From a virus (taxonomy: Duplodnaviria; Heunggongvirae; Uroviricota; Caudoviricetes): DNA of 23,430 nucleotides. Positions within the stretch are counted from its first letter, which is position 1. The number at the start of each line of letters is the position of its first letter. The stretch is taken from positions 1-23,430 of IMG/VR virus record IMGVR_UViG_2671181100_000007; one strand, given 5' to 3'. Shown here in pieces: positions 2,213 to 23,430 of the stretch. Under the pieces are notes generated by a model, which worked only from the letters and a program-made list of their open reading frames with translations, did no database searches and was not told the origin of the DNA. The translations under genes and the position numbers were made by a program.

Positions 2213-2250
2213 AAACCCTGATGGTTGGCGCCGTCAGGGTTTTACTTTTT
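2213..2250 (+). terminator. Intrinsic terminator hairpin (strong on plus strand, weak on minus strand just after the ImmA stop)
   Basis: AACCCTGA-N12-TCAGGGTT followed by TTTACTTTTTT on the plus strand. Confidence 0.5.
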
Positions 2251-4217: not shown

Positions 4218-4294
4218 ACCAAACTGTTTTCAAAGCTGAATGAATTGATTAAGCCAAACGTAACATATCAGGAAAAGTAGTGAAATCTTTGTCT

Positions 4295-4842
4295 TCAAGT
4301 CGCCGGGAGGTACTTGTAGATTGTTTTCACGTCCACGCCTGTCACATCAGCCACCTGCTGCCGGGTAGCGCCAGTACCCAACATCCTGCGGCATCGCTCC
4401 ACAACCTCAGTGGTCATTACCCGCCGGCGGCCACCAATACACCCTGCTCTCTCGCCGCCACCAGGCCTGCGCGGGTCCTCTCCACAATCAGCTCTCGTTC
4501 CATCTCTACCAGCGCGCTCATGACGTGGAAGAAGAAGCGGCCGGCGGCCGTGCTGGTATCGATGCTATCGGTCAGGCTTCGGAAATTTACCCCGCGGGCC
4601 TGCAGCTCCGAGACCAGAGTGATTAAGTCGCGCACGCTGCGCCCCAGCCGATCCCGTTTCCAGACCACCAGCACATCGCCCGGGCGGAGCCGCCGTAAGG
4701 CGCGCTTTAACCCTGGCCGCCGGGCATTTTTCCCGCTGGCCATATCCTCAAAAACCAGCTCACATTCTGCGCGGAGCAGCGCGTTTTTCTGTAAATCGAG
4801 GTTTTGATCCCCGGTGGATACCCTCGCATAGCCAATCAGCAC
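4295..4842 (-). CDS. Serine DNA invertase (Gin/Pin/Hin/Cin family); frameshifted near 4436-4440 (catalytic domain ORF 4417-4842; C-terminal HTH continues in another frame to TGA at 4295-4297)
   Basis: GTG start with AGGAG SD; MLIGYARVSTGDQNLDLQ...VVWKRDRLGRS...SLTDSIDTSTAAGRFFFHVMSALVEMEREL is near-collinear with Mu Gin as recalled, including the catalytic Ser in RVSTGDQ. The shifted frame after codon ~135 reads IGGRRRVMTTEVVERCRRMLGTGATRQQVADVTGVDVKTIYKYLPAT (HTH domain). Confidence 0.85.
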
Positions 4843-6880: not shown

Positions 6881-6886
6881 TTTCTT

Positions 6887-7687
6887 ATGAACAATATCTA
6901 TATCCCAAAACTCGGTGACGTCGTAATTCCGGGAACTCATCCGAAAAAAGGGCATTTCATGCAGCCGGATTTACCTGTTATCGCAGGGTTGAAAGCGATG
7001 TACATCCACGGCGGAACCTTAGAGCTGAGCATGAGAAACCGTGCCGACAACACCGCTCCACTGACCAAAGTCGGTTCGCCATCGATCCAGGCTGATTTCG
7101 GGGCGGTCTGTAGTTTCGGTAACTGTTTTGATACCGGGAAAGTTTCTACCAAAAACCAGACCCATATCGTGATCTGTAAGCCGGTAAAACCAACGGCGGC
7201 TACCGAAACCCAGCAGGCCTTCATGATGGGTAACTACAGCTATTCCGGCTCACCGGCAGTGTATCGCGGCGACGGACTCGCTTTTCTGTTTTCCGGGCAA
7301 AGTCTTTACGGGGCCTTTGTAGAGGACAATAACGTCACGCCAACGAACATGATCAACTACTACAGCGCGGCATACGACACAACGAAGTGGGCCGCTTTTG
7401 TGGAGCTGGTTGATGGTGACAATGGGATTGCCAGGATTGCTGCCAGGCAGGGAGGACCGCTTAACTGGCAGAACTCGAAAGCGTTGGTCAACCGAACCGC
7501 TTATACCGACCGCACGATCCGGATAGGTTCGCATCATGCGCCCGCTGCATACCCTGCAGGCGCTGCCATTACGATGGGGATGGAGCTGATTTTCGAGACA
7601 GCGCTGACACAGGCGCAGGTTGCTTCCGTTCTCGACAGTATAAGTGCCTATCTCAGTTCGGCATGGGGAATTACCGATTTAGGTTAA
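6887..7687 (+). CDS. Hypothetical protein co-encoded 6 nt downstream of the SGNH fibre gene (possible fibre-associated accessory or second receptor-binding subunit)
   Basis: 266-aa ORF, same strand and cassette as the fibre gene; no recognisable catalytic motif; weak SD. Confidence 0.45.
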   Translation: MNNIYIPKLGDVVIPGTHPKKGHFMQPDLPVIAGLKAMYIHGGTLELSMRNRADNTAPLTKVGSPSIQADFGAVCSFGNCFDTGKVSTKNQTHIVICKPVKPTAATETQQAFMMGNYSYSGSPAVYRGDGLAFLFSGQSLYGAFVEDNNVTPTNMINYYSAAYDTTKWAAFVELVDGDNGIARIAARQGGPLNWQNSKALVNRTAYTDRTIRIGSHHAPAAYPAGAAITMGMELIFETALTQAQVASVLDSISAYLSSAWGITDLG

Positions 7688-7723
7688 ATATATACGTTAC
7701 TGATTACCAGACGGGCAGGTAGA

Positions 7724-7798
7724 GAAAAAATCCCCCTGAGCAGGCACACTCAGGGGGAAAGTACTGCATAACATCATTGCTGTGTGCGTCTTTGCGCG
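7724..7798 (-). repeat. IR2 right copy; contains minus-strand intrinsic terminator (hairpin 7731-7758, U-run from 7725-7730) downstream of the 1113-aa fibre gene
   Basis: TCCCCCTGAG-N8-CTCAGGGGGA with A6 on the plus strand (T6 on minus); about 74 bp inverted identity to 3639-3712. Confidence 0.65.
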
Positions 7799-7861
7799 CA
7801 GCATATTTTCAGAGAAAACCTCCATCGTTTCCAGATGTTTCTTACTATTTCAGACTGTGTA

Positions 7862-10800
7862 CTAACCCTGGTTGTAAAAAAGCCACAAATCAGACAACGT
7901 TGACGCCACAAAACTGATCTCTGACAGCGTGTCTCCCGCAGCATTCGTGCCGTCGAATCCAAAGAACCGTTTAGGGAAGCCAGGCTTTGGCCCGTACTGC
8001 GTTTTCAGTTTATCCAGCAGACTGCCCGCTGCCGATAACGCTGATGGCCGGTCTGAAAAAAACAGCGGCAGCAGCGCAAAGGTGATGGTATTGGCAGCAC
8101 CCCGGCGGCTTTCGGAAATGCAAAAATCCACCTCCTTAAACGCCCCCATTCCGCTGGTCGCGGACAGAATGAAATTAACCAGGTCAAAGGCCGGTTTACG
8201 GTCCAGCAGTCTGCAGGCTAACAGATAGTTGTTAACGGCATAGCTGGCGTAGTGCAGGTACATCGCCCGGCTCGGGTATTCCGTCGCTGCATCCTGCAGA
8301 ATTCCTTCCGCCTTCATAAACTGGTTACGGTCCGTCAGCAGCGCCTCAACAGCATTAAAGGCTGTCAGGTAATGCCCGCTGCTGTCCTGCCCGGTATAAA
8401 TCCCCAGCGCCAGCGCCCGCAGTCCCGTGGCATTGGCATTACTGGCACCAATCCCGGTGGCTGTGCCAGCAATCTGAATACCGCCGTTGGCGGCCCAGTA
8501 CGTATAGACGGCATCCGCCAGGCTTTTTATCCCCGCCTTCAGCTCGGTAATTTTGGCCGGGTCACCCGCCTTCACCGCCATTTTGTAGAGCCACTCGTAA
8601 CAGGGAATGCTCAGACGCGACTGAAACTGCAGCCCCCACCACCCGCCGGTATACGCGGCCCCCGGATTGATGATGGAGCCCTTATCCAGTGCCATGTAAT
8701 TTTTAAAGGTGGCGTACACCGTATCCAGATCACCGGTGCCATAACGGGCCAGCAGGAAAATGTCCGCCGGTACACAATAAAATGCCGGATATTCCAGTTT
8801 ACCTTCACCGTTGATGAATGGCATGCCACCGCCATATTGGCGGGCGTCTTCCGATTTCCACCACTCCACTGAACCGCGAATATGGCAGGCCATTTTTTCC
8901 AGCAGATCCTGACGGATAACGCCCGCATAACCACAGTCACCCGCAAATCCTACCGGGCGGTTAAGTGCCTGGCTGTTAATGAGGGCATTCGTGGCATTCG
9001 ACGCCGCCGCTGTCACACTGTTATCGCAGTCAATCCACAGCTCGTGTGTCCAGGTCCAGCCTTTTTTCACCGGCCAGTTCAGGAACGAATAATCGGTAAT
9101 ATTCGATGAACCATACCGCCATCCGGCATCAATGCGGGTGTACGCTGCCCCGTCGGGTACCAGCGCCGTACCGCGAACCGGACGGTTTGGCCCGTAGGTT
9201 GGCCCGTCCCGGTGAACGTCTCCGTTTGCATAGACCAGCGCCGCCGTAAAGCGTTTACCCGTTGTGGCATCGGTAAAGTAAGCCAGCGCACGGGAGGTGT
9301 CGTAGGTGTACACTCCGTCGTTAAGCAGAAGTCGGGAGTACACCCCGAACAGCACGCCAACGGGAATATCCTGCATCGCCGTATTCATGACACGGACAGA
9401 AACCTTCCCGTTTCTGAACAGACGGTACCGGACTGTTGCCATCAGGGCGCCCTCTGCCAGCGTGTTTCCGGCCCGGTTACGTACCGTCATTTCCAGCTCG
9501 GTAAAGACCGGCCCTGTGTTCACCAGCCGGATGGATGCCCCCAGAATAAGCCGCTCATCCACCGCCACCCCGGCAACCACCTGGCTGTAATAGCAGCCGT
9601 GTGTAATGTTATGAACAATACCCGCCGGGTCGGTAATGCTGGTCAGGGCAAATCCCTGCTGGCGTAAAAAGGTGTATTTGTACCCGCTGACCGTCACGCT
9701 GTAACCGTCGGCAGTCTTCACCAGCTGCGGCCAGGAGCCAGAGGCCAGATCAGTCCGGCGACGGTTCCAGGCTTTCACCTCGTAATACTTCTGCGCACCA
9801 CTGGACAGCGAATCCAGAATGAAAACAGACCCTGCCGCCAGGGAGCCATCCGCGTGATAGCTGATATTCGACTTCTGACGCGGGTTAACATGGATATCAT
9901 CAGCAAACTGGGCATCAAACGTATTACCGTCAGTATCTGTCACCAGCAGGGCATCGGAATCCGGGACGTCACCGGGTGAGAAACTGACCCTGATTTCTAC
10001 CGGATAATTAACGTACCCGGCTGAAAGGGTATTTTTGACGTCCGTACCTTTTCGCTGATAGTTACCCACCCGCACCGATCGCACCACTTTACGCCGCCAG
10101 ACGGCATAACTTCCTGCCGGAAGGACAGCCAGACCGGATGTGGTGAAGCCTTCAGTGCTGACGGTATAGTCACCGGCAGGCAACAGGGCTTTGAAATAAT
10201 CCTCAAACCCGGTCTGTGCGATAGTGGTATCGTACGCCGCATATCCGGCAAACAGGCAATCCGGAGCAATAGTTTTCAGGTAGTCTCCCACCGTGGCGGC
10301 AGTAAAGCCCGCAGCAGTCAGCTCTGCCAGGGTGACCACAAACTGAATGGCATTCGCAATTGCCGTACCCGAAATGGACTTCCTCGTCACCGACGTGACC
10401 AGTCCGGCCTGAGCGGGGGCGAATTTCCCGGTTAAGTCCAGCGCGATATAGTTTGAACCGGCCACCGGGACGCCGAAGCCAGCAGGCAGGTCATAGCGCA
10501 CCCGGACCAGCGTTGCGGTGGTTTCCAGAATGCCCACATACTTCAGGTCCCGGAACCGGAAGAGGCGATAGGCTGACCAGAATTTTCCCTGAGCGTACTG
10601 CGTCTTTGTTCCCGGCAGTACAAAGGCCATCACTTCAGAACCCGCTGAAGAAAATACCAGCCGACTGTAAACCGTGTTCACATCCGACGTTGTCGCCAGG
10701 GTACGCAGTTCAATTACTGAATCTTCCGGTAGCATCAGCGCAGGGTCGTCCAGCAGCTTTAACCCTGTCAGATCCTGGTAGTCGCCATATTGTCGCTTAA

Positions 10801-11203
10801 TACCTTCCCGGTCTGTCAGCGTCGCTGTATATGCCAGCCCCGCTTCAACCCCTTCCTGCGAGAGCATTTTCCGCCCCGTGGCCGTTAGTGTCCCTGCCAC
10901 GTTCATATACTCTGTAGCCAGCGCGCTGCCGTCCTGGCTGCGCACGTAGGTTGTGGCGTTCACAGGGATATTCGCGATATCTGCCTGCGCTGCCGTCAGG
11001 GTCATGTACTGCTTACTGAGCGGGATGATGTTCTGCCGAATTTCGTCATTCTTTGCCATCATCTGGCGCCAGGTATCGAGCGGTTCGCCTGCGCGGTCGT
11101 TAACCGTTCCGGCCGGACCGTTAACCAGCTCGTCAGCGCGCTTGACGTTATCCAGGAATATTTCAGGCGTCGTCGTTCCCAAAGGCGGGTTAAGTTCGGC
11201 CAT
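7862..11203 (-). CDS. Tail fibre/tailspike protein (1113 aa) with shared N-terminal anchor domain and large unassigned C-terminal region (candidate receptor-binding or polysaccharide-degrading domain); the cassette currently in the expressed orientation
   Basis: ATGGCC start inside the right IR, 23 bp after the gix-like site; same strand as the upstream tail operon; N-terminal ~115 aa homologous to the 4934 ORF. Confidence 0.8.
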   Translation of the reverse strand: MAELNPPLGTTTPEIFLDNVKRADELVNGPAGTVNDRAGEPLDTWRQMMAKNDEIRQNIIPLSKQYMTLTAAQADIANIPVNATTYVRSQDGSALATEYMNVAGTLTATGRKMLSQEGVEAGLAYTATLTDREGIKRQYGDYQDLTGLKLLDDPALMLPEDSVIELRTLATTSDVNTVYSRLVFSSAGSEVMAFVLPGTKTQYAQGKFWSAYRLFRFRDLKYVGILETTATLVRVRYDLPAGFGVPVAGSNYIALDLTGKFAPAQAGLVTSVTRKSISGTAIANAIQFVVTLAELTAAGFTAATVGDYLKTIAPDCLFAGYAAYDTTIAQTGFEDYFKALLPAGDYTVSTEGFTTSGLAVLPAGSYAVWRRKVVRSVRVGNYQRKGTDVKNTLSAGYVNYPVEIRVSFSPGDVPDSDALLVTDTDGNTFDAQFADDIHVNPRQKSNISYHADGSLAAGSVFILDSLSSGAQKYYEVKAWNRRRTDLASGSWPQLVKTADGYSVTVSGYKYTFLRQQGFALTSITDPAGIVHNITHGCYYSQVVAGVAVDERLILGASIRLVNTGPVFTELEMTVRNRAGNTLAEGALMATVRYRLFRNGKVSVRVMNTAMQDIPVGVLFGVYSRLLLNDGVYTYDTSRALAYFTDATTGKRFTAALVYANGDVHRDGPTYGPNRPVRGTALVPDGAAYTRIDAGWRYGSSNITDYSFLNWPVKKGWTWTHELWIDCDNSVTAAASNATNALINSQALNRPVGFAGDCGYAGVIRQDLLEKMACHIRGSVEWWKSEDARQYGGGMPFINGEGKLEYPAFYCVPADIFLLARYGTGDLDTVYATFKNYMALDKGSIINPGAAYTGGWWGLQFQSRLSIPCYEWLYKMAVKAGDPAKITELKAGIKSLADAVYTYWAANGGIQIAGTATGIGASNANATGLRALALGIYTGQDSSGHYLTAFNAVEALLTDRNQFMKAEGILQDAATEYPSRAMYLHYASYAVNNYLLACRLLDRKPAFDLVNFILSATSGMGAFKEVDFCISESRRGAANTITFALLPLFFSDRPSALSAAGSLLDKLKTQYGPKPGFPKRFFGFDGTNAAGDTLSEISFVASTLSDLWLFYNQG

Positions 11204-11251
11204 GTTTTTTGCTCCAAAAAAGGCGTTCGCCCAAACGAGGGTTTGAGCGAA
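11198..11251. repeat. Right inverted repeat (54 bp) containing gix/hix-like site (11226-11251; minus strand TTCGCTCAAACC-CT-CGTTTGGGCGAA)
   Basis: Inverted copy of 4886-4939 with one mismatch; lies between the J-like gene stop (11280) and the fibre start (11203). Confidence 0.75.
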
Positions 11252-11279
11252 AGAAAAGTTGAAAGGGATTTTTTTGGTA

Positions 11280-14200
11280 TTAAGCAGCGTCGCCGGGGTA
11301 TGTGGCGTCGTCGTACTGGTAGAACGATTCGAGGTATTCTTTAGCGGTGACCTGGCATGTTCCGTCAGACTGCGGGGCGATCTCCTCTACAATGGCGTCG
11401 TAGACGTGGCGCGTTGATCCGCAGAACACCAGGCGGATCGGCTCGATGGTTGCCGACGACAGGTCAACCTTCATCGGGTCATCAAACTCGCTCAGGTGCG
11501 GGACTGACAGCTGAAAATCGCCTACCCTGCTCGCCACCATCAGCCCGGATGCAGAACCATCCTGATAGCGGATCAGCGCGCGGGGATTTTCGAAAGACCA
11601 GTCCAGCGGCTCCGTAACGGTGAACGTTGTCACGCCACCAGCCGTTGTCATCGCCTCCACCAGACAGGAAATCGTGTTGTTACCCGGAATATCATCCGTG
11701 AGCACAATGCGATCGCCCAAGTTGTAGCACAGCGCGTCCAGCTCGGTAGTGGTCTGGAACGTCACCCGCTGCTGCAGGTATTTCATCAGGCGACGCATGC
11801 CGAGCTGGTAGGCGTGATCCTGATTCAGTACCCCATCGAGTTTGTAGTTTTCGATTTTCACTGGCGTTGGATTGTCCGACGTCCGGCATTTAACGGTCTC
11901 CTCTGCCCAGGTGACGCCGTTGATGTACGTCACGTCGACGCCATCAAAATCATCGTCAGACGGTACGATAAATCCGCTTTGCAGCTCCTCCACCATCTCA
12001 TGCGGAGTGATCACGCCAGTCCAGGGCTTAATCCCCTCACGGTTGACCGTCGCCAGGCCATCGCTCAACAGGAAGCGGGACTTCCCGGCATTGGCTATCT
12101 TCTGCAGCATTTCCAGCGCTGAGATACTGTCGCCGGTAGCGAAATCGAAATACTCTCCCCGTGGCGTCCAGTACGCAGACTCCAGCGCGTTGATGGTGTC
12201 GGCATCCATCTCCAGTCCCAGCGAGTTCCCGACATGCAGCAGCGCCCCAGAAATGGTTCTGGCCGTTCCTGAGTCATAGGCCCGCGTGGCCACCACGTTT
12301 ACGCGGCGGTCCGACTGAGCCGCCAATTTGCCCCCCGTCTCAACGGTCACCGCCATCAGCGACACGCCGGGATAGGATGAAGGGCGCGTCAGCAGTCGCC
12401 CGCGCAGTGCCTGCCAGTACATCGAATCCCTGGCGTTGTTTGAGCCCTGCTCATTGCGCCGGCGACAGCGAACCTCTACCAGCCCTGGTGAGCTGAGGGT
12501 GATCCGCTCAGTGAATCCCAGCCCGTTGACGTTTTTAAGCGCATACTCTCCCTGGTGACTCACCCACCCCGATCCGGAACCGTAGACGCGATACTGAATC
12601 TCCCACTCCACGTGGCGGATCCGTTTTTTGCCCTTACTGTCAAAGCCACAGATGCCGTTCGGGAAGGAGAAATTCACCTCGAATGCATCCACCACTTCAT
12701 TCTCAGGGCAAACCAGGAACGGCCCCAGCCAGCTCAGCGTGTCGTTAAGACCAGTGGCCTCATAGTCGATCATCGTCCGGGCGGAGAATCCCGGCCATGA
12801 CTCATCAACGGCACCGGAAACCAGGCGCACCACCGTCGCCGTCGTGCCGTCAGCTGACACAATCCGGTACTCATTCCCGCGGTGAGCAAGTGAAAGCCGT
12901 TGCACCCCCTCCGGCATCCCGGAGAATGCAGTGCCCGTGGCGCTGTTATAGGCAAGCGTCACATTCGCCGTTACCGCCGGGCTGCCGCCGGTTGATGCCG
13001 TGCCGGAGGTGTAAACCGGAGCATCACCGAAAACAGCTGCAGGCAGCGAAGAGGACGTGATCGCCCCACCCGCGAACGGACTGGCCGACTCGGTTATCAG
13101 TACGGTGCCGCCGTTGTCCTGTGCAACCAGGCCGGAGCCAGTGAGTCCCTCGGTGATGGCCGCCAGCAGTCCCGACATCGAGACATAGTTAGCCACCAGC
13201 GACACCGGGTAGGTAACCCCCTGCCAGGTGATCGTGAACGTGCTGGAGCTGGTCGAAAAATCGTAGGTGGTCGGGGCCGCACTGGCCTGGACTTTTGCCG
13301 CACTCCCCCCGGTGCCGGGCACTGCAGCCTGACCGGGGGTATATGACGCGATAAACAGATCGTAATCGACAGAGTTAAACCCCAGCGTCACCGGCATTCC
13401 AACCACCGGCGCGATCTCCGTCAGCAGCGGGCTGGCGATAACGCTGTATCCAGCCGCCGTGGTGATCTGGTAGTTCGCCGGGGCTTTCAGTTCGACCACG
13501 GCGCCAGCGACCCAACTGGGCGGCAGTGCGTTATCGTTCTCGTCATTATCGTCATCATCATCCGTATCCAGCCCGGTAAACGTTACGCTCGAACCGGATA
13601 CGGTCATGCTGTCTGCGATAATGTCGTCTGCGTCCGGCGACGTCTGGGCCATATCCAGCCCGGTGCCGGATGACGTCCCGCCCACTTCGGTGGAGTTGAC
13701 CCAGTTTTCGCTGCGCTCATCACCGGAAACGTCCGCGCCTGGCGGGTAATGGGTGCTGCTGAATCCCGGTAGCGTTGAAGCTGGCGTACTGCCAACCCGG
13801 ATATCGCCATTGGTATAAATCAGATCACCGACACCGAGACACAGCAGCATCTGGACGCGCATTTTCGTAGGATCGGCGGCATCAAACCGGGTAACGGGCT
13901 GCACGACATAATCCGGATAAATACGCACGCGCCCAAAAACTTCACGAATCGCATCACCCAGTTTCGCGCTGTTTCCTTTAGCGGGGTTCAGGTCGAGGCT
14001 TCGACCTGTGGATGACGTATAGCCGCCGGCATCAATGTTACTCATCATGAACAATGAATAAGCCGCAGATGCGACGGCAATGCCCACTCCTATCCAGGCA
14101 ATTGTCGCGGCCTCAAGCCCGAAAGGCACCGGATAAAGCCGGACATCACTATCAGGGTGGATCACGAAAATAGCCCATTCGCCTGGCGGAATTGACTGCC

Positions 14201-14348
14201 CCTCAACCTCAACGGTCAGCGGTGGGACATCCCGATCCTCGTAGCCTTCAACATTTGCCACCAGCCAGCTGCGAATACTGGTTACACCATGCTCATGCGT
14301 TTCGAGTGGTTCACCGGGAAGCCGGGACGGGTAAAAACGAATGGTCAT
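11280..14348 (-). CDS. Tail tip / host-specificity protein (J-like central fibre, 1022 aa)
   Basis: Large ORF at the distal end of the tail module, translationally coupled (ATGA overlap) to the NlpC/P60 gene; N-terminal hydrophobic segment; acidic run TDDDDDNDEND. Confidence 0.7.
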   Translation of the reverse strand: MTIRFYPSRLPGEPLETHEHGVTSIRSWLVANVEGYEDRDVPPLTVEVEGQSIPPGEWAIFVIHPDSDVRLYPVPFGLEAATIAWIGVGIAVASAAYSLFMMSNIDAGGYTSSTGRSLDLNPAKGNSAKLGDAIREVFGRVRIYPDYVVQPVTRFDAADPTKMRVQMLLCLGVGDLIYTNGDIRVGSTPASTLPGFSSTHYPPGADVSGDERSENWVNSTEVGGTSSGTGLDMAQTSPDADDIIADSMTVSGSSVTFTGLDTDDDDDNDENDNALPPSWVAGAVVELKAPANYQITTAAGYSVIASPLLTEIAPVVGMPVTLGFNSVDYDLFIASYTPGQAAVPGTGGSAAKVQASAAPTTYDFSTSSSTFTITWQGVTYPVSLVANYVSMSGLLAAITEGLTGSGLVAQDNGGTVLITESASPFAGGAITSSSLPAAVFGDAPVYTSGTASTGGSPAVTANVTLAYNSATGTAFSGMPEGVQRLSLAHRGNEYRIVSADGTTATVVRLVSGAVDESWPGFSARTMIDYEATGLNDTLSWLGPFLVCPENEVVDAFEVNFSFPNGICGFDSKGKKRIRHVEWEIQYRVYGSGSGWVSHQGEYALKNVNGLGFTERITLSSPGLVEVRCRRRNEQGSNNARDSMYWQALRGRLLTRPSSYPGVSLMAVTVETGGKLAAQSDRRVNVVATRAYDSGTARTISGALLHVGNSLGLEMDADTINALESAYWTPRGEYFDFATGDSISALEMLQKIANAGKSRFLLSDGLATVNREGIKPWTGVITPHEMVEELQSGFIVPSDDDFDGVDVTYINGVTWAEETVKCRTSDNPTPVKIENYKLDGVLNQDHAYQLGMRRLMKYLQQRVTFQTTTELDALCYNLGDRIVLTDDIPGNNTISCLVEAMTTAGGVTTFTVTEPLDWSFENPRALIRYQDGSASGLMVASRVGDFQLSVPHLSEFDDPMKVDLSSATIEPIRLVFCGSTRHVYDAIVEEIAPQSDGTCQVTAKEYLESFYQYDDATYPGDAA

Positions 14349-14725
14349 TGCCAGAACTCCACGCGAACAAAGCGCCGCTTAAATCGCGGCAACGGCAGAA
14401 AAGTTACGTTCGTGCCTGGGTTGCATTCCGCCACATGCAACAGACCATCGATACTGACTACGATCCCTACATGGGTGACAGTCGACCCGGAATAACAGGC
14501 CACCCCGGCCCCTTCGCAGGGTTCGCAGCGCTCAAGGGTAAGCATCATCCGGCGCGCTTCCCGGTCGAGGCCGCCGTTGTCTTTGGTGACCCCGGCAAAA
14601 TCGGGCCAGACGGGTAAATTCAGGTCGCGGCGTATCTCGTTCACAATGCCGAAACAGTCGAGTTGCGGGTATACGCGCCCGCCCTTCAGCCAGGTGACTG
14701 AACGGTATTTATCAGGGTTAAACAT
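14345..14725 (-). CDS. NlpC/P60 (C40 peptidase)-family tail protein
   Basis: 126 aa with Cys in DCFGIV and His in THVGIVV, spaced as in NlpC/P60 catalytic cores; position matches tail-tip assembly genes. Confidence 0.65.
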   Translation of the reverse strand: MFNPDKYRSVTWLKGGRVYPQLDCFGIVNEIRRDLNLPVWPDFAGVTKDNGGLDREARRMMLTLERCEPCEGAGVACYSGSTVTHVGIVVSIDGLLHVAECNPGTNVTFLPLPRFKRRFVRVEFWQ

Positions 14726-14734
14726 TGGAATTCC

Positions 14735-15217
14735 TTAGCTGATATAACGCAGTCCGGGGAATACAGGGAGCGTGTAGCGGTAACGCGGCCAGGCGGTATC
14801 AAGGATATTCATATAACCCGCGGTAATCTGCACCTCTGTCGCCGTCCAGGAGCCCGACTTGATTTTCAGCGTATACGGCACTTCCGCAGGGGCCGCCAAA
14901 TCCGTGGAGATATAACGCCGGTACGTCAGCGATGCAGGCAATCTGTTAGCCAGGGCATTGCGGATCGCCGTGGACACAACACCATCGATATTGCACAGGG
15001 CAAATTTGAGGTCCTGCGTGCCGTCCGCATTGCGCGCCGGCAGAGCAATGTCTATCGCACAGGCGGAAAACGTTACGGTATCGCCGTTCTCCGTCGTTGC
15101 CGTAATACCCTCGTAGCCCTGGCACAGATAATGGACGTCAGAACCAATGGTGATCTGCAGCGTTTCAATGATCACCTCCGGTCCGCTGCTGGCGTAGAGG
15201 CGTTTAATCTGCGTCAT
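14735..15217 (-). CDS. Minor tail protein (distal tail), start taken at internal ATG 15217
   Basis: ORF in the tail operon between the M-like and NlpC/P60 genes; longer ORF-track version (to 15304) would overlap the upstream gene by 100 nt. Confidence 0.5.
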   Translation of the reverse strand: MTQIKRLYASSGPEVIIETLQITIGSDVHYLCQGYEGITATTENGDTVTFSACAIDIALPARNADGTQDLKFALCNIDGVVSTAIRNALANRLPASLTYRRYISTDLAAPAEVPYTLKIKSGSWTATEVQITAGYMNILDTAWPRYRYTLPVFPGLRYIS

Positions 15218-15677
15218 GCTTCGGCCACTCCTTATTAAGCGCAATATCCAGAAGAGACTGTCCCGCAAGCCATTCCGGGTAATGGCCCCAACCAACTGGG
15301 GCAAGAGGTCTCTCTCTTAATTCAACTATTGCCGAATAACGCCACAAGCCTGGTTTAATGAATGAGGGTCCCTTATAAATCCCTTTAAATCGACATTTAA
15401 AAAACTTTAATCCAACTGGAGTTTTACATTTCATGTAAAACCATGCTGCACCATCAGTTAAAACGTCTCTATACCACGATTCAAATACCTGTGCATGCGC
15501 ATCACTTTTAAATTGCCATACAACAGTATTATTAGTTGGTACTGATGTATATTTTCTACGCTGTCTGGCAAGCCCTCCAATCCTGTCGGTTCTAATCATT
15601 GGATCTATTGGTTCAAATCCATAATTATCGTACGTCGGTCCGGGTATGTATTCATGAGGATAATATATATCGGTCAT
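15204..15677 (-). CDS. Minor tail protein (possibly lambda gpM-like); low-GC patch
   Basis: ATG overlaps the tape-measure stop (TAATG coupling); weak resemblance to the gpM pattern; clearly more AT-rich than its neighbours. Confidence 0.5.
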   Translation of the reverse strand: MTDIYYPHEYIPGPTYDNYGFEPIDPMIRTDRIGGLARQRRKYTSVPTNNTVVWQFKSDAHAQVFESWYRDVLTDGAAWFYMKCKTPVGLKFFKCRFKGIYKGPSFIKPGLWRYSAIVELRERPLAPVGWGHYPEWLAGQSLLDIALNKEWPKHDAD

Positions 15678-18373
15678 TATTTAATACGCCTCCCCCGATA
15701 TACTGCATTGAGTGAGCGTCCATAATCCTCAGTAGGGTTAATTATCTGAGAAGTGAAATAGTGCTTTAGCCTTTTCTCTGATTCCCTCATTTGCTGATTT
15801 ACCATTTGCATAGTGGTATCATCAGGTTTTCCCGAGAAATTATTATGGAATTCTGCAACTAGATGTTTACCCCCGAGAGTTCTTTGTTGACGAACTTCAT
15901 CGAGGGTCGCATCCAGTTTTGCAGACGTTCCAGCGGTAGTTACCCTTTCTCCTTTTTTCAATAGCCAAGTCCCCGTCTCAGGTATTTTATCAATACCATC
16001 GTGAGCCATACCGGCTAAAGCTGATGCTGAGATAGCAGCAACAAGAGGGGTAGTGACACCAGCAGCCGCAGCCAGTGCTGCAGGTGCCAGACCCGGACCA
16101 ACTATTGGGATAGCAGCGGTGGATGCATACGCTGCAAGTTGGGCCTGAAGCGCTGTAGCCTGCGCATTAGCGATCAACGGAGCAACAGCGGTTGCCTGAG
16201 TGGTCTTCCCAACCAGAAGCTGAACGCCCTGATAAACCAGCCACTGTGCGGCCAGTTGAGCCAGCGTCTGAATAACTGTCTTACCAAAACCTTCAACCAT
16301 GTTACTCAGGGCATCGCCAGCATCTTCAGACTGAGTTGCAAGGTCATATAACCCCTGCTGGAGATTGCTTGTTACTCCTCCGAGCGCAGTATTGGTTGTA
16401 TCCGCAGCGATCTGATTGTAATTGGTGGCCATGTCAGCATAGTTTTCCCATGACGACTGAACGCCGGCCAACCAGTTATTACGCATTTCATCCTGTGCAG
16501 CGTAATAACCCTCAAGTGCGGAAAGCTCTTTCTGATACCCTTCATCTTCCAGGCTTCCACCCTGATTTTTCCATCCCTGCCTTAATTGCGCCCTCTCGCT
16601 ATTACGTTGTGCGTCCTTGTCACTTAACCCAGCACTATCTGTCAGTGCTGCAGTCTTTTCCTGCATCTGAGTAACATATTTTAACGAGTTATCCTGAAGC
16701 TTATTCAGACGCTCCTGAGCAACAATCTGATCGCCAAGTTTCGCATTAACCTCAGCCTGCGCCAGAACCTTATCCTTGCTGGCGAGTAAAGATTGTTCAT
16801 CTTTACTCAGTGCGCGTGTTTTCGACGCCTCTTCTATAACCGCGAATTTTGACTGTAAAGACCACAAATTTTTACGTTGCTGACTGATGGTATCGTTAAG
16901 CCCCGTATGCTGTTGCAGCAACTTTAACTGCGTCATCAACTGCAGGGTTTCGGCATCAGTCTGATCAGAAGAACGATCACCAGCAGAAACTTTAACGCCT
17001 TTTGGTTTCGGAGTTTTTTTTAAGGTGGCCTCATATTCTTTCTTGGCTGCGGCCATATTGATGGCGTAATCAGCCTGTAGGATATGTCCTTCTTTCAGAG
17101 CTTTATTTAATTCATTCTGCCTGGTAGTATACTTTTCAAGCGCAGTCTGCGATTTAGCATAATTGGCTTGTGCTTGAGCGGCATATTTCTGTTTTTCAGA
17201 TTCTGCCTCCGCTTCCTTTTCGGCCGCTGCTGCGCTGGCTTTGGCAATACCTGCTTGCTGCTGCGCCATATCAAGAGCCAGTCGGGCCGACTCCCTGTCA
17301 TTCCAGAAACGGGCTCTGGCTTCATCGTTTACATAGCGATCATTTTTCCTGAGATTCCAGATGTCATCAGCCTGCTTAAAAGCTGATTGCGCCTTGCTTA
17401 CCATCTCCTCTGCGGTATCAGGCCGCCCCAAATCCAAAGCAGCATCCCACATGGATTTAAACGCGCGTTTCAACGAATCAGCAGAGCGCTCAATCGTCCC
17501 CATGTTATCGATCAGGCTCTGAGTCTGGATGTTAAATCCCTTCGTCGCCGCATCATTAGCCGCCTGAAGTGCAGCGGCTTCATCTCCTGAACGTTGTAAC
17601 TGAGCAACGTAATCAATCTGCTCTGCTGTCACATTATGAAATTGTTGCGCCATCGCAATCAGGCCGGACGTCGGGTCGTTGGTCAGTTTCCCGAACGCTT
17701 CCGCAACCTTCTCAATGGGGATACCAGATGCCGTAGAAAATTTTGCAACTGACTGGCTTAGGTCATCAAAACGCGCACCCGCCCCCACACCAGCATTAAT
17801 TAATGCAGTCAGAGAATCAGTGGTTTGATCAAAGGTGAGTCCTGCTTGCTGTCCCGATTTTGCCAGTGCCAGCATTCTGTCGGTGGTCAGACCAGCCGTG
17901 TTACCTGATAGCGTCAACGTCTTATTAAAATCGGAAAGGGTTGACGTTCCCTGATAGAAGATATATCCAATTCCGGCACCTGCGGCGGTCAAAGCTGCAA
18001 CCCCAACGGCCAACGGACTTACAGCTCCAAGTAATCCTCGAAATGTTGGAATCAGGCCACCAAATGAGTCTTTAACCTGACCGCCTTGCTGGAGCAAAAT
18101 TAGCCATGGGCTTTGCCCACCAGCTAACTGAGTTGCGACATCAGTAAGCTGCGCAGGCAACATGCGCATTGCATTATTGTATTGGCCGATTGAAATACCG
18201 GCACGTTTTGCAGCACGCTCCTGCCGCGTGAAAGCTGCGGTTACCTGGGCTGTACTGTCGTTCGCGGCTCTACCTAACCCGCTCAGCTGCTTATTCAGAT
18301 GAGCAACTTCCTCATCAAATTTTGCGCTATCGCCGTCAATTTTAACGACCAGATCACCCACTGGCTGGGACAT
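15677..18373 (-). CDS. Tail tape measure protein (lambda gpH-like, 898 aa)
   Basis: N-terminus MSQPVGDLVV...RAGISIGQYNNAMRMLPAQLTDVATQLAGGQSPWLILLQQGGQVKDSFGGLIP is near-identical in pattern to lambda H as recalled; long coiled-coil middle; follows G/T. Confidence 0.9.
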   Translation of the reverse strand: MSQPVGDLVVKIDGDSAKFDEEVAHLNKQLSGLGRAANDSTAQVTAAFTRQERAAKRAGISIGQYNNAMRMLPAQLTDVATQLAGGQSPWLILLQQGGQVKDSFGGLIPTFRGLLGAVSPLAVGVAALTAAGAGIGYIFYQGTSTLSDFNKTLTLSGNTAGLTTDRMLALAKSGQQAGLTFDQTTDSLTALINAGVGAGARFDDLSQSVAKFSTASGIPIEKVAEAFGKLTNDPTSGLIAMAQQFHNVTAEQIDYVAQLQRSGDEAAALQAANDAATKGFNIQTQSLIDNMGTIERSADSLKRAFKSMWDAALDLGRPDTAEEMVSKAQSAFKQADDIWNLRKNDRYVNDEARARFWNDRESARLALDMAQQQAGIAKASAAAAEKEAEAESEKQKYAAQAQANYAKSQTALEKYTTRQNELNKALKEGHILQADYAINMAAAKKEYEATLKKTPKPKGVKVSAGDRSSDQTDAETLQLMTQLKLLQQHTGLNDTISQQRKNLWSLQSKFAVIEEASKTRALSKDEQSLLASKDKVLAQAEVNAKLGDQIVAQERLNKLQDNSLKYVTQMQEKTAALTDSAGLSDKDAQRNSERAQLRQGWKNQGGSLEDEGYQKELSALEGYYAAQDEMRNNWLAGVQSSWENYADMATNYNQIAADTTNTALGGVTSNLQQGLYDLATQSEDAGDALSNMVEGFGKTVIQTLAQLAAQWLVYQGVQLLVGKTTQATAVAPLIANAQATALQAQLAAYASTAAIPIVGPGLAPAALAAAAGVTTPLVAAISASALAGMAHDGIDKIPETGTWLLKKGERVTTAGTSAKLDATLDEVRQQRTLGGKHLVAEFHNNFSGKPDDTTMQMVNQQMRESEKRLKHYFTSQIINPTEDYGRSLNAVYRGRRIK

Positions 18374-19087
18374 AGCGAACTCCTCCAGGAATGCTTTCGG
18401 CTATCGACATAAGTTGCTCGTCTGAATCCAACTCACTTTCTCCCTCACGTTTTGATAACAAACTAAAATCAAGGGAGGTAATTCCGTGTTTATCCGGATC
18501 GGTGAAGAGACTGACAGCAAGATAACTAAGATTGGCAAAATGAGAGTCCAGGAGGTCGTCGCTAAAACAATTATCCTGGTAATACTCAATCCATTCGAAC
18601 CATTCAGAGGAAGACATTTCCGAAAGCATTGCGCGCCAGTCTGGCCGTCCAAACTCCCTGGCTAATCGCATAGCAAAGCGACGTGAGCGGGTCAGGACTT
18701 TTCCAAATCTGGCTCTTCCTCTTCTTCAGTTTTCTCAGTGTCATTATTAACTGGTGGGATCATCCCTGAAAGCATACGCACAAGTAATGCAGCGCTGCCC
18801 AATAACCCTGGTGGATATTTTCGTATAATTTCAGGGAAAATATCTTTCCCTTCACGTTGCTCTTCATCAGCCTCGCTCAAGGATAATGCAACGAGCATGG
18901 CCTGATCACGCATAGTCAACAAGGTGGCCAATTTAAAGTTTTCTTCAGGTGTGCTTTCCTCTGACGGTAATGACTTCCTCTCTTCAACCATAAATTCAAT
19001 ATATTGCATTCTACTGTAAGCCGATAACTCAAACAGTAAAATATTCTCACCATCGGGATTTAATGTGTCTTTTTTAAGATAAGTCAT
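18354..19087 (-). CDS. Tail assembly chaperone G-T fusion made by programmed -1 ribosomal frameshift near the 3' end of G (window 18698-18726)
   Basis: The T ORF (MRLAREFGRPDWRAMLSEMSS... like lambda gpT) is in the -1 frame relative to G; that frame is open across the last ~11 codons of G; candidate slip heptamer GGAAAAG at 18698-18704. Confidence 0.65.
18692..19087 (-). CDS. Tail assembly chaperone (lambda gpG-like)
   Basis: 131 aa, acidic C-terminus (TEKTEEEEEPDLEKS), between major tail and tape measure genes; resembles lambda G. Confidence 0.8.
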   Translation of the reverse strand: MTYLKKDTLNPDGENILLFELSAYSRMQYIEFMVEERKSLPSEESTPEENFKLATLLTMRDQAMLVALSLSEADEEQREGKDIFPEIIRKYPPGLLGSAALLVRMLSGMIPPVNNDTEKTEEEEEPDLEKS

Positions 19088-19129
19088 TTCATTACCTTTC
19101 GCGGTGCCTTAGCACCGCTGACGAATATA

Positions 19130-19612
19130 TTAAGGGTTAGTCGAAGCGTTATCTTCAGCCAGAGAAGGTTTACCTTTATTGGTGATTTGTGCACTACGGG
19201 TAATAACTTCGTTTCGTGAAATAGTCTTACCCAAACTATTTACCCAGCCGGTGAAAACATCAACTGCCCCATTTGGATATTTAATTTTGTAAGATTTTTC
19301 ATCACCACTCATAAACCAGTCAACCAGATCCTTCTGGCCAGATTCACCAGGTTTCCAGGCAAGTGTTACGCTGGTTTGACCGGCTGACTTAACACCCTGA
19401 GCTGTTGCATCCCAGTCAGGCGCATCATCATCAATATACGAATCATCATATGATTCTGCAGTCAGTTCCCCAGGTGTTAATTCCTTAACCTTTGCCGTTC
19501 GTGTCCAGCCGACATCACTTAACGGATCATCGTAGGGATCACCAGTTCCGGTATAAATCCAAAAAGTTGTCCCGGCACCTTTCGTCGGCGTGGTAGGTGT
19601 TGGAGTTGGCAT
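19130..19612 (-). CDS. Major tail protein (lambda gpV-like N-domain, without the C-terminal Ig-like domain)
   Basis: [59 protein letters not shown]... closely parallels lambda V as recalled; 160 aa. Confidence 0.85.
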
Positions 19613-19619
19613 ATAGTCC

Positions 19620-20018
19620 TCACATAATATAAGTCAGGGAATATTGGAGATCGGCGGAGCCCCATGTAGTGGCTTCATCGTCACGTTGGTAGTCGTACCC
19701 GGCAACGCTGATGGTTTCAACGATACTGGCAAGCTCAGGAACGTCAGCCATGGCCGGATAGATGCGGGTTTCCATCCATTTATCCAGCTCGCTATCGGTA
19801 GCAGTTGCTTTAAGGAATACTTCAATGTGAAGGACAGCCTCCCACTCTTCCTCATCAATACTGCCGCCCGTCGCCTTTGCATCAGTAAGATATACAGCGA
19901 CCGCAGGTAACTCTTCTGGAGCCAGGAAAGCTGGCCGACCGTCATACCAGAATATTTTTCCGGAGTTGATTGACTTCAGTTTATCCAGAACAGCTTTTCG
20001 TACTTGCGGGTGAATCAT
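19620..20018 (-). CDS. Tail terminator protein (lambda gpU-like)
   Basis: 132 aa; RKAVLDKL...FWYDGRPAF...[11 protein letters not shown]...LHIEVFL...[15 protein letters not shown]...GYDYQRDD...[10 protein letters not shown] is collinear with lambda U. Confidence 0.85.
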
Positions 20019-20566
20019 TTTGTTACCAGCCTTATCTGATTTTTGATCGCAGCCATCATTTCTTTTGGCATATCAGATGCCATCAGTTTGGGAAGTTCTT
20101 CTTTGAATGCAGCAGTCAGGGGGGTGGCCAGAGGTACTTTCACCACTTCTACCGGGTAACGAGATTTACTGGTTCGTCGAAGAACATGCCAGCGACCATT
20201 ATTAAGCTGTTGCACAAAAGCACCAGGGAAGCTGAAATTCCCAATCTTCAGAACGCTTCCAGAACTACCGTTGTCGCGCTTTCGTCGTGAAAGTTGAACT
20301 CGTACTGGCCCCAGCTTTATCGCCGGGAGGTTGCCGCGATTTACCCGGATGGTAGCCATTGGTTTTTTAGGGCTTGCCCGTTTAAGTTTGGCGCGCTGCA
20401 TGACCAGTTTTCGCTTAACCTTAGTCTCTTTCGCCACTCGCGTAGAGCTGCGGCTGATTGCCCTTCCAGCCACCCGGTTAATGGACTGGGATGTCGCCCG
20501 AGGAATGGCATTTTTACTGATATTGCTCAGGTTCTGCCTGAGATCTTCCAGCCCTTTAATCGTCAC
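20015..20566 (-). CDS. Tail completion protein (lambda gpZ-like); GTG start with GGAGGT SD
   Basis: VTIKGLEDLRQNLSNISKNAIP...RVAKETKVKRKLV...LKRA...GAFVQQLNNGRWHV is collinear with lambda Z; the ORF-track N-terminal extension (to 20770) overlaps the upstream gene and lacks an RBS. Confidence 0.8.
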   Translation of the reverse strand: MTIKGLEDLRQNLSNISKNAIPRATSQSINRVAGRAISRSSTRVAKETKVKRKLVMQRAKLKRASPKKPMATIRVNRGNLPAIKLGPVRVQLSRRKRDNGSSGSVLKIGNFSFPGAFVQQLNNGRWHVLRRTSKSRYPVEVVKVPLATPLTAAFKEELPKLMASDMPKEMMAAIKNQIRLVTK

Positions 20567-20849
20567 CTGTGACCTCCTCAATCCAGATTTGCGGCTTACC
20601 ATTAAAGAGGAGCCATCGGGTAACGGTGTAAACCTGACTTTTATAAATAACCTCATCTCCCCGCGCCGACTGATAGCCAGCGCTGAAGATAACCAGGTTA
20701 ATCCCATCCCCCGCGACTGGCCCCAGCTCAGGCAGCAGGTGACTTTCAACAGCAATATGCTCATCGCCATTAATAGTCACCGTTCTGCCCAGCCTTTTCG
20801 CCGTCAGTTCATCCATTCTGCCAGCCATATTGTCAAAGGCATTAGCCAT
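20556..20849 (-). CDS. Head-tail joining protein (lambda gpFII-like); start taken at second ATG
   Basis: MANAFDNMAGRMDEL... resembles lambda FII (MADFDNLFDAAIARADE...); position between the capsid-associated gene and Z. Confidence 0.6.
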   Translation of the reverse strand: MANAFDNMAGRMDELTAKRLGRTVTINGDEHIAVESHLLPELGPVAGDGINLVIFSAGYQSARGDEVIYKSQVYTVTRWLLFNGKPQIWIEEVTGDD

Positions 20850-21168
20850 TGATTTTGACTTCCAGGACGGTAACGCCTGCCGCAGCATCCTCCCAGGCAG
20901 TCCCGGCTAACACCGCATCGGTGTCATCCAGCTGAACATTTCCAGCTTTGAGATATACCTTTTCCCCGGCGGTCACGGCATCCGTTGGCAACTTAGGTAA
21001 AAGAAAGACACCTTCAGCGAATCCGTCGCCTACATCACCCGGCTGAATATCGGTAATTGCAACCGCAATCATCCCGCCTAAAGAAACGGGTGTACCGCTG
21101 AGAATTTCCTCGGTACCAGAATTTTTCACGGGGATGGTTTTGCCGTCTTGCACATAATTTTTAGCCAT
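20842..21168 (-). CDS. Small capsid-associated protein (DUF2190-like; possible head decoration/cement protein)
   Basis: 108-aa Gly/Ala/Val-rich ORF immediately downstream of the capsid gene, a conserved position for this family. Confidence 0.55.
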   Translation of the reverse strand: MAKNYVQDGKTIPVKNSGTEEILSGTPVSLGGMIAVAITDIQPGDVGDGFAEGVFLLPKLPTDAVTAGEKVYLKAGNVQLDDTDAVLAGTAWEDAAAGVTVLEVKING

Positions 21169-21248
21169 AACGTCTCCTGTCAGCCCCGCAGGGCTGATTT
21201 CAGGTATAAAAAAAGCCCTTCCGGGCGTCGTTTTCAGAACTGTAATGA

Positions 21249-23144
21249 TTACTGGCCGCTGGATTTCACCAGGCCGCGGTAATCAAGCGGCGCCACACCA
21301 GCATCGATACGAACTTTTGTAGCGATACCGTCAGTGGTAAACCCTTCCTGTTGATCAATGTAAGGAGTATCAACACCATTCAGATACGCAACTTCGATGG
21401 TGTCCGTCCCTTTTGCCGCCATCAGATACCAGGCTTTTGCGTCAGCTTCGTCAAGGCGGGCCTCTGCAATCACATCTGCAAAATTCTGGATCGGGTTAAT
21501 AATCCCGGCGTTAATATCCGCCCCTTTTACGCTCGCTGATTTAATCGTCTGGTTAGCCAGTGTCTCCAGCGCGACCGGCACCAGCATAAATGCCGGGCGG
21601 ATGTTCAGAGATCGTTCTCCCTCTTTCTGCAGGCGCATCAGTTTACGGGCATCGTCCAGGCTGCTGACGGAAATAGCACCGGTGGACAGGTTCTTGTGGT
21701 CTGCATGGAATAACGCCTTACCATCTGAGAGTTTTGGATTTTTGGTCAGAATGGCGTAAACAAGGTCACCGATAGTCGCCTTAGCGGCACGGCCCATTTT
21801 CATCGGAACATCTGTGAGCTGGTTCAGATCATCATTAATGATTGCCTGGCGAGTGATGGAAAAAATTTCTCCGTAGGTGGCTAGCGCGATGGTTTCCCCT
21901 TTATCGCCGGTAGTCACATACTTATATTCAGCGCCTTCGCGAACCTGCCGCAGAGACGGGAATCCGCCCATCCCCACACGATGCGCTGTCTTAAAGTCCG
22001 ACAACTGGCCTTTCTTTGTCCACTGCTCAAAGGTTTCTGCAGCTTCGTCCCAGCCCTGCAAAATCGATTTGTTGGCGACATCAAGAAGGATGTTGCCAAA
22101 ATCAGAGGTGCTGTGCGTCAGCGCCAGCCCTACCATCTGCATCGGGTTATAGCTGGATACGCCAATTCCCCGCTCAGTCAGGGCCATGCGGGCATATTCA
22201 CGCAGGGTCATGCCGTTGTAGACATTGTCACGTTCCTGATCTTCAAATCCGGCACGCGCCATCAATGCCTGGCGAATACCATCGGCGACAAAATTACCGT
22301 TACCTGCATGAATATGCGCTGGTGTGGTTTTCGCCGATGGTGAAGCATCTTTACCCAGCAGCGCCAGCAGTTTGTCTTTAGCCTGATCGACAGAGCAGTC
22401 CATATCTGCTACACACTGCGCCTGCAGTTCGGCGTGTTTACCACCAAACATCGCAAAGAGGTTGTTAATACCATTAACGCGATCCTTTTGCTCAGCGATT
22501 ACCTGAGCACGAATGGTGTTTTCGTCAATTACGGAAGGTTGGCTCACCACCGGCTGCTGCATTTGTGGTTGCTGGGGATCGCGTTGCGTGGTAGCTCGCG
22601 GCGGCGTTAACATGTTGCGAATATTTTTTGGCATCTTTTCGAAGTCCTCAATACGTTTAGACTGGATACAGGCCATAGCCTGAAGAGAGGGGGTGACCTG
22701 GTCGGCAAAACCCATAGCGACGCATTCTTTGCCGTCCATCCATGTTTCATCTTCCAGCATCGCCGCTATTTCATCGGGGCTCTTACCCGTTTTCTCTGCA
22801 TAAGCAGGGATCAGAACAGACTCAACCTTGTCCAGAAGCTCTGCGTAGTCACGCATATCGTTGGCATCGCCACCAGCAAAGCCCCAGGGCTTATGGATCA
22901 TCATCATGGTGTTTTCAGGCATGATGACCGGATTACCTACCATAGCAATGACAGAGGCCATAGACGCGGCCAGACCGTCGATATGAACGGTAATTGACGC
23001 ACCATGATGTTTAAGAGCATTAAAAATGGCGATGCCGTCAAAGACATCGCCACCAGGCGAATTGATATGAAGATTAATATGGGTCACATCACCAAGCGCT
23101 TTAAGGTCGTTAACAAACTGCCGGGCGGTCACGCCCCAGTAGCC
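21249..23144 (-). CDS. Prohead protease (ClpP/S14-like) - scaffold-like linker - major capsid protein (HK97 fold) fusion; 5' end truncated by the IS insertion at 23145
   Basis: N-terminal HINLHINSPGGDVFDGIAIFNAL...MASVIAMVG...MMIHKPW matches ClpP-type prohead protease blocks; Gln/Pro-rich linker; C-terminal ~350 aa with capsid-like character. The frame stays open upstream of the GTG at 23132 into IS-derived sequence, and the conserved block before ..GYWGVTA is missing. Confidence 0.8.
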   Translation of the reverse strand, partial: GYWGVTARQFVNDLKALGDVTHINLHINSPGGDVFDGIAIFNALKHHGASITVHIDGLAASMASVIAMVGNPVIMPENTMMMIHKPWGFAGGDANDMRDYAELLDKVESVLIPAYAEKTGKSPDEIAAMLEDETWMDGKECVAMGFADQVTPSLQAMACIQSKRIEDFEKMPKNIRNMLTPPRATTQRDPQQPQMQQPVVSQPSVIDENTIRAQVIAEQKDRVNGINNLFAMFGGKHAELQAQCVADMDCSVDQAKDKLLALLGKDASPSAKTTPAHIHAGNGNFVADGIRQALMARAGFEDQERDNVYNGMTLREYARMALTERGIGVSSYNPMQMVGLALTHSTSDFGNILLDVANKSILQGWDEAAETFEQWTKKGQLSDFKTAHRVGMGGFPSLRQVREGAEYKYVTTGDKGETIALATYGEIFSITRQAIINDDLNQLTDVPMKMGRAAKATIGDLVYAILTKNPKLSDGKALFHADHKNLSTGAISVSSLDDARKLMRLQKEGERSLNIRPAFMLVPVALETLANQTIKSASVKGADINAGIINPIQNFADVIAEARLDEADAKAWYLMAAKGTDTIEVAYLNGVDTPYIDQQEGFTTDGIATKVRIDAGVAPLDYRGLVKSSGQ

Positions 23145-23430
23145 GTAAGCGTAAACTGACCGCCGTATGTAGCCATCAGACGAGAATTGGTAACTTAGAC
23201 GCCCATCTGATATAGACGGACATCTAAGTATGGAATTACAGGACTGGCGAAAAGAACCTCGTAAAAACTATTCGAATGAATTCAAACTTCGTATGGTGGA
23301 ACTGGCATCACAACCTGGAGCTTGTGTTGCACAGATTGCACGTGAAAATGGCGTCAATGATAATGTTATTTTCAAATGGCTCAGGCTCTGGCAGAACGAA
23401 GGGCGTGTTTCACGGCGTCTTCCGGTAACG
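23145..23430 (+). mobile_element. Left end of an IS element (IS66-family-like: terminus GTAAGCG..., orfA about 85 bp inside); continues beyond the window
   Basis: Abrupt loss of prophage coding at 23145; terminal sequence GTAAGCGTAAACTGACC; HTH-type transposase accessory ORF starts at 23230. Confidence 0.55.
23230..23430 (+). CDS. IS transposase accessory protein (OrfA/TnpA-type HTH), partial (runs off window end)
   Basis: MELQDWRKEPRKNYSNEFKLRMVELASQPGACVAQIARENGVNDNVIFKWLRLWQNEG: typical IS OrfA pattern (R/K-x-YSxEFK ... G.SVAQIAR..GV..N..FKW). Confidence 0.6.
   Translation, partial: MELQDWRKEPRKNYSNEFKLRMVELASQPGACVAQIARENGVNDNVIFKWLRLWQNEGRVSRRLPVT

Follow-up and report, generated by a model that had tools for sequence, protein, structure and literature searches.

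What ends the head gene at the edge of this prophage, and can the prophage still make heads of its own? The DNA in question, referred to as the window, spans positions 1 to 23,430 of the IMG/VR virus record IMGVR_UViG_2671181100_000007. Towards its end, a minus-strand open reading frame (ORF) with its stop codon at 21249-21251 remains open through 23144 and then for 49 further codons into the DNA beyond. The best explanation, in which we have high confidence, is a simple insertion of the IS66-family insertion sequence (IS) ISEc23 into a gene that encodes a ClpP-like prohead protease fused to the major capsid protein, which would disable head production. The original prediction, made from the letters of the window, had described an IS truncation that probably leaves the prophage defective. 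The gene is indeed interrupted at the very base it named, whereas "defective" would follow from the loss of the gene start and is taken up at the end in a narrower sense.

The break between prophage and insertion sequence

A megablast comparison of the region with 5426 complete Escherichia coli genomes split it into two unrelated parts, phage up to 23145 and IS from there onward. The stretch 22600-23145 matches three prophages at 99.5-99.6%, in an annotated fusion protein gene, and the stretch from ~23132-23137 to 23430 matches thousands of copies annotated as "IS66-like element accessory protein TnpA". The overlap of a few bases evidently stems from target-site similarity, not from another IS boundary. 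Nearly all through the IS part, 3104 of the 5426 genomes match the searched stretch (median of 2 places per genome, maximum of 21), and no record among them spans the junction. The prophage type is rare in these complete genomes, with three phage-part matches among the best 30.

An uninterrupted allele would read across 23100-23200 into GATCTCGTCG.... A 118-kb ENA assembly contig (L016), reached through an exact match to the window's tape-measure protein, carries the gene uninterrupted and is 100.000% identical to the window over 17,469 nt (window 5677..23145), with zero mismatches; two further relatives (L017 and L020) are 99.99% identical to the window, and their fusion gene is likewise uninterrupted. 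Homology to the intact allele ends at 23144/23145, in agreement with the original prediction, which let prophage coding end at 23144 and the IS begin at 23145. Because there are zero substitutions over 17.5 kb against the uninterrupted L016, the insertion is, by this comparison, very recent. Who the two partners are, where exactly they meet and how recently they were joined can be read directly from these alignments.

The inserted element is ISEc23

From 23145 the plus strand reads GTAAGCGTAAACTGACC..., and the left terminus (GTAAGCGTAAACTG...) begins with 5'-GTAAGCG, as the terminal repeat of IS66/ISEc23 does. The features at this terminus are as follows.

23137..23144, no strand assigned: target octamer CAGTAGCC, the predicted copy of an 8-bp target-site duplication on this side of the IS
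23145..23430, plus strand: left 286 nt of ISEc23 (IS66 family), 285/286 identity to full copies
23145..23168, plus strand: left terminal inverted repeat GTAAGCGTAAACTGACCGCCGTAT, with 20/24 positions matching the right end of full copies
23230..23430, plus strand: first 67 codons of tnpA, an IS66-type accessory gene with a helix-turn-helix (Pfam HTH_Tnp_1 1.9e-12)

Two full ISEc23 copies were fetched, one from a sequence type 131 (ST131) chromosome (L002) and one in which the IS lies within hipA (L003). In both, the element spans 2532 bp from GTAAGCG to CGCTTAC with directly abutting 8-bp duplications (CAGTAGTC in L002 and CCATTGCC in L003), and the Prokaryotic Genome Annotation Pipeline (PGAP) annotates tnpA, tnpB and an "ISEc23 family transposase". 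ISEc23 is a member of the IS66 family with the gene set tnpA, tnpB and a DDE transposase gene (tnpC). The IS part of the window corresponds to the first 286 of the 2532 nt and is identical to each copy at 285 of 286 positions (L002 4009-4294; L003 4012-4297); the comparison with IS66-family termini that had been proposed at the outset ends in a match of the GTAAGCG end to both full copies. The window shares with the PGAP-annotated 2532-bp copies the GTAAGCG terminus, the 85-nt leader and the TnpA N-terminus, but it holds only the left 286 nt, and tnpB, the transposase gene and the right end lie outside. The ORF of OrfA type with a helix-turn-helix that was predicted 85 bp into the IS is tnpA: its ATG is at 23230, 85 nt inside the element, and it translates as MELQDWRKEPRK... 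/ MELQDWRKEPRKNYSNEFKLRMVELASQPG..., in a context identical to WP_000422741.1, "IS66-like element accessory protein TnpA" (PGAP).

Because full ISEc23 copies carry 8-bp duplications abutting their termini, CAGTAGCC at 23137-23144 is the predicted target duplication copy. The left-flank octamers of 11 independent ISEc23 copies (the window, L002, L003 and L024-L031) read CAGTAGCC, CAGTAGTC, CCATTGCC, AGACGTCT, CCAGTACG, CTGTATCA, GCAGAGAC, ACAGTATC, CCATTACC, CCAGTGGC and CAATAACC. CAGTA is present in 4 of the 11 and related strings in several more, far above chance for an 8-mer, and this recurrence suggests that ISEc23 has a loose target-site preference.

The interrupted gene encodes a protease-capsid fusion

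The part of the gene left in the window comprises three segments.

21249..23144, minus strand: 3' part of the fusion gene, codons 41-671 plus stop (631 codons), NCBIfam NF045540; ClpP-like prohead protease, scaffold-like linker and major capsid protein, with the 5' end removed by the IS
22692..23144, minus strand: truncated ClpP-like protease domain, residues 41-191 (Pfam CLP_protease, NF045542)
22185..22691, minus strand: linker between protease and capsid domains, residues 192-360, Pro/Gln-rich and then helical-looking
21252..22184, minus strand: major capsid protein domain, residues 361-671 (Pfam Phage_capsid_4 1.7e-60; Mu-like_gpT 1.7e-8)

Pfam finds both domains in the single ORF of the 631-codon fragment, CLP_protease at fragment residues 14-151 (3.5e-37) and Phage_capsid_4 at fragment residues 321-628 (1.7e-60), and residues 41-671 are identical to the same residues of the intact L016 protein. 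Against NF045540 ("ClpP-like prohead protease/major capsid protein fusion"), whose curated cut-off is 475 bits, the truncated copy scores 990.6 bits and the intact allele 1011.4 bits. The window copy thus has the score, the motifs and the capsid domain of the fusion family, but not the full length with N-terminus and start codon. As it covers only positions 11-652 of the 652-position profile (2-652 in the intact allele) and has no start codon bearing a ribosome-binding site, it is a disrupted member (pseudogene) of the NF045540 / PHROG 133 family.

The truncation falls on the protease domain. The CLP_protease profile is covered from 37 to 179 in the window copy versus 4 to 179 in the intact copy, and NF045542 from 16 to 165 versus 2 to 165. 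Two motifs survive, GLAASMAS (from 22976) and MMIHKP (from 22904), which we take to be the ClpP-type Ser and His active-site motifs; this catalytic assignment is made by motif, not by structure. A sequence search of the PDB returned only cellular ClpP matches for the protease part and no match for the capsid part. Between CLP_protease and Phage_capsid_4, no Pfam domain was found in either the window copy or the intact copy, and the linker is presumed to be a scaffold or delta-like segment because the tripartite gene of Gifsy-2 serves as model.

What the insertion removes

The extent of the loss depends on where the intact gene starts, and annotated lengths are inconsistent across the family: 648 aa by PGAP, 671 aa by the gene calls of the assembly collection, 728 aa in phage Eeyore and 693 aa in CF60a. 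PGAP places the start at an ATG 50 nt past the junction, and the collection calls place it at a GTG 119 nt past the junction. The GTG has AAGGAGG upstream with a 5-nt spacer, both kept in Escherichia phage Eeyore; between the GTG and the ATG lies an SWF/SWY motif that Pseudomonas phage CF60a also has in its protein, which is 61% identical; the alignment to the PHROG 133 profile begins at residue 14 when the 671-aa form is used; and no recognisable ribosome-binding site precedes the PGAP ATG. For these reasons the 671-aa GTG start appears better supported, and the PGAP start is probably 23 codons short. The GTG start overlaps the 3' end of the portal gene by 56 nt (L016 5110-5179, the region cut from the window by the IS).

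The IS most likely sits exactly between codons 40 and 41 of the 671-aa gene, or at codon 17 under the PGAP start. It cuts off the ribosome-binding site, the start codon and the segment ...SWFRMQASADNQVEIYIYDEI. The first conserved protease strand, VEIYIYDEI, is absent from the window copy, and the loss of this first strand of the ClpP fold amounts to about 20-33 of the 182 CLP_protease profile positions. The conserved N-terminal block before GYWGVTA is missing, as the original prediction had said, although the lost part is short (40 codons, or 17 by the PGAP start). The same prediction had placed portal and terminase beyond the IS; in every intact relative, L016 included, the portal and large terminase genes are directly upstream of the fusion gene. 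It had also named what would tell against a truncation, a naturally short gene in related phages with a start within 23133-23160, and none was found: related phages start 50 nt (ATG) or 119 nt (GTG, AAGGAGG) past the junction.

As predicted, the capsid/protease frame runs into the IS terminus, and the 49 open codons past 23144 contain no ATG, GTG or TTG. The first start codon that remains in frame is the following.

23132..23134, minus strand: GTG, preceded by CTACTGGGGC

The G-run ahead of this GTG ends 1 nt from the codon, which leaves no properly spaced ribosome-binding site, and the next ATG is at 22961, just past the presumed catalytic serine. A search of 22800-23430 gave no sigma-70-like promoter. 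When possible gene calls for the truncated ORF were looked up as exact proteins, only frameshifted or contig-end copies came back, all without the IS.

Alternative explanations

Several points weigh against a simple insertion that abolishes head production. The window lies at the end of draft contig LOOH01000056.1 (135,001 bp; E. coli assembly GCA_001575545.1), which stops 2 nt past the window while still in the IS; beyond that point would lie the right IS end, the second CAGTAGCC, codons 1-40, the portal and the terminase. A simple insertion predicts ...CCGTTGACGCTTAC, then CAGTAGCC, then GATCTCGTCGTAGATATAAATTTC..., joined to the portal gene, and the right junction was scanned for as CGCTTAC followed by CAGTAGCC and GATCTCGTCGTAG.... 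Neither the phage/IS junction nor this predicted right junction had a match in genome_contigs, nor had the right junction one in metagenome_contigs, and neither collection is expected to include the strain. In addition, GTG 23132 may support weak initiation, or late antitermination may let transcripts read through.

The region beyond the contig end leaves room for a larger rearrangement, in which, once the IS was in place, the rest of the prophage (codons 1-40, portal, terminase, lysis and regulation) was lost or moved elsewhere, either because ISEc23 copies recombined with one another or because the IS caused a deletion next to itself, and a tail-plus-capsid remnant stayed behind. ISEc23 is multi-copy in E. 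coli, which would offer the substrates. However, 17.5 kb at 100% identity to an uninterrupted copy marks a very young event, and a contig break in a multi-copy IS is normal for short-read assembly and requires no rearrangement. Short-read assemblies commonly break at multi-copy repeats, and the break here is explained by ISEc23 being such a repeat. Given the recency of the event, a rearrangement is less likely than a simple insertion, and we regard it as unlikely.

A smaller chance still falls to the IS acting as a leaky or reversible brake. Antiterminated read-through together with initiation at GTG 23132, or precise loss of the IS in a subpopulation, would then yield enough polyprotein for heads.

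It is very improbable that the gene is functional as it stands, with a start at GTG 23132 or at a non-canonical codon in the IS end giving a shortened polyprotein that assembles and processes itself, and a prophage that is not defective. The Ser/His motifs of catalytic type survive, as do the scaffold and capsid parts in full, and the frame is open 49 codons into the IS; yet no spaced ribosome-binding site is present, the IS part offers no start codon, the conserved first strand of the ClpP fold is gone, and all relatives keep the longer N-terminus.

Just as improbable is an assembly artefact, in which the end of a prophage contig was chimerically joined to a repeat and the capsid gene is truly intact. 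The IS part is a mere 288 nt at the extreme end of a draft contig, and the junction occurs in none of the 5426 complete E. coli genomes. Against this, the join coincides exactly with the true IS terminus (GTAAGCG), as a random mis-join would not; the flanking octamer CAGTAGCC is similar to other ISEc23 target sites; and the same contig is indexed for 2 samples. Chance is not a viable account of the junction, since the break meets to the base an IS terminus that is independently defined by the 8-bp duplications of two other copies.

Head module and relatives

The original prediction called the fusion of protease, linker and capsid in one ORF uncommon, and this did not hold. The fusion is a curated family (NCBIfam NF045540, PHROG 133) that 81 phage genomes on deposit contain at 80% coverage or above; an experimental precedent is the three-part capsid gene of Gifsy-2 (Effantin et al. 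2010, as cited in PMC8538268). As in the Gifsy-2-type module, a single ORF joins a ClpP-like protease at the N-terminus, by way of a middle linker, to a capsid domain of HK97 fold at the C-terminus, and next come a gene for cement/decoration (Phage_cement_2) and one of the Pfam "Gifsy-2" family. The locus differs in that the IS removes the first 40 codons and the translation signals; the likeness itself is drawn from the genes and the secondary citation above. The gene directly downstream of the fusion gene is the following.

20842..21168, minus strand: head decoration (cement) protein gene, intact (PHROG 122 "head decoration" 3.3e-38)

Relatives of this decoration protein carry Pfam Phage_cement_2, and its exact sequence occurs in 1212 blocks of the assembly collection, on contigs of about 5.3 Mb among those listed, and in many intact prophages. 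The named members of the capsid cluster are Klebsiella proteins, and the exact portal protein sequence is common to many Klebsiella genomes.

Two relatives have the same head module with an uninterrupted fusion gene and no IS, namely Escherichia phage Eeyore (PP925821.1), at 87.7% amino-acid identity, and the prophage of E. coli EC31 (NZ_CP060987.1), at 99.6% nucleotide identity. In both, the order is portal, fusion gene, and head-completion and tail genes; only EC31 has an annotated DUF2190/cement gene right behind the fusion gene. Other prophages of the same type, from genomes of some 5.3-5.5 Mb, have other lesions near the fusion gene: L006 (CP026013.1) has a 451-aa call, and L008 (CP154186.1) has ~3.6 kb of other DNA between the fusion gene and the decoration gene.

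Tail-spike segment and chromosomal flank

The far end of the window adjoins the chromosome and contains an invertible tail-spike segment.

1..933: yfdC, formate/nitrite transporter family, chromosomal flank marker
2242..2661, minus strand: Peptidase_M78/IrrE-like protein, small prophage-end gene between yfdC and the invertase
2785..3144, minus strand: HTH_3 protein, small prophage-end gene between yfdC and the invertase
4417..4842, minus strand: serine invertase, 141-aa ORF (Pfam Resolvase 7e-47), adjoining the invertible segment
4934..6880, plus strand: SGNH/GDSL protein ORF, 648 aa, alternative gene at an end of the invertible segment
7862..11203, minus strand: alternative tail-spike-segment ORF, 1113 aa, at an end of the invertible segment

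At either end of the 6.4-kb segment (4886-11251) stands a 54-nt inverted repeat (4886-4939 and 11198-11251), the two being 98% complementary. The repeats contain the palindromic site TTCGCTCAAACCCTCGTTTGAGCGAA, which we take to resemble Gin/Cin/Hin-type crossover sites, and each ends in GGAGCAAAAAACATGGCC, which supplies one of the two alternative genes with its ribosome-binding site and start. In L017/L037 and in L020 the segment has the opposite orientation relative to gpJ, a clean inversion with 100% identity across the segment in L037. A second inverted-repeat pair (3636-3714 and 7722-7800; 79 nt, 92% complementary) has one arm outside and the other inside the segment.

The invertase (window 4250-4842) is one nucleotide short of its intact 182-aa homologue from E. 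coli ES4 (GAGCAGGGG versus GAGCA-GGG), and, compared with that homologue, the helix-turn-helix domain at its C-terminus lies in the -1 frame. Seven relatives, at two chromosomal sites, carry exactly the same out-of-frame sequence, yet both segment orientations exist. The invertase could be a pseudogene complemented in trans, a split invertase, or the product of an unusual expression mechanism; a programmed frameshift is unlikely, with no canonical slippery sequence at the site. At the second chromosomal site (L032, L036 and L039), the same tail module has umuDC-like cargo replacing the small prophage-end genes. No tRNA gene was found in the window.

Consequences for the prophage

Taken as a simple insertion, the locus would have arisen by transposition of an ISEc23 copy (2532 bp) into a lambdoid prophage that adjoins yfdC in E. 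coli and has a Gifsy-2-type head module, where the copy hit the head gene. Residues 41-671 would thereby be cut off from the GTG start with its ribosome-binding site and from the first conserved protease strand. With tnpA pointing away from the fusion gene, 2.5 kb of antisense IS would lie between portal and capsid in the late operon, and late transcripts from the portal would have to cross it. Little or no capsid polyprotein would then be translated, and the loss of capsid production is strongly indicated. Because a single gene encodes the protease, the scaffold-like segment and the capsid subunit, the prophage would make no heads of its own and would depend on another phage for them, or on losing the IS.

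This looks like one fresh lesion. The downstream genes (decoration, head-completion, tail tube, tape measure, gpJ and tail spikes) have ORF lengths equal to those of intact relatives, and all other genes in the window have full-length ORFs. In lambdoid prophages of E. coli O157:H7 Sakai, an IS similarly sits in a morphogenesis gene while the rest looks intact, but the element there is IS629 rather than ISEc23, and the phages are others. In the Sakai "defective prophage pool", IS-hit lambdoid prophages were reportedly still excised, and even transferred with help from other prophages. Since such prophages can be excised and transferred with help, "defective" should by analogy be read here narrowly, as "cannot make its own heads".

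The event is ordinary: both elements are well known, and IS hits in prophage structural genes are routine. The capsid gene is to be flagged as an IS-disrupted pseudogene, and the significance beyond annotation is small. With zero substitutions against an uninterrupted copy, the locus nevertheless provides a clean, dated case of an IS probably inactivating a prophage.

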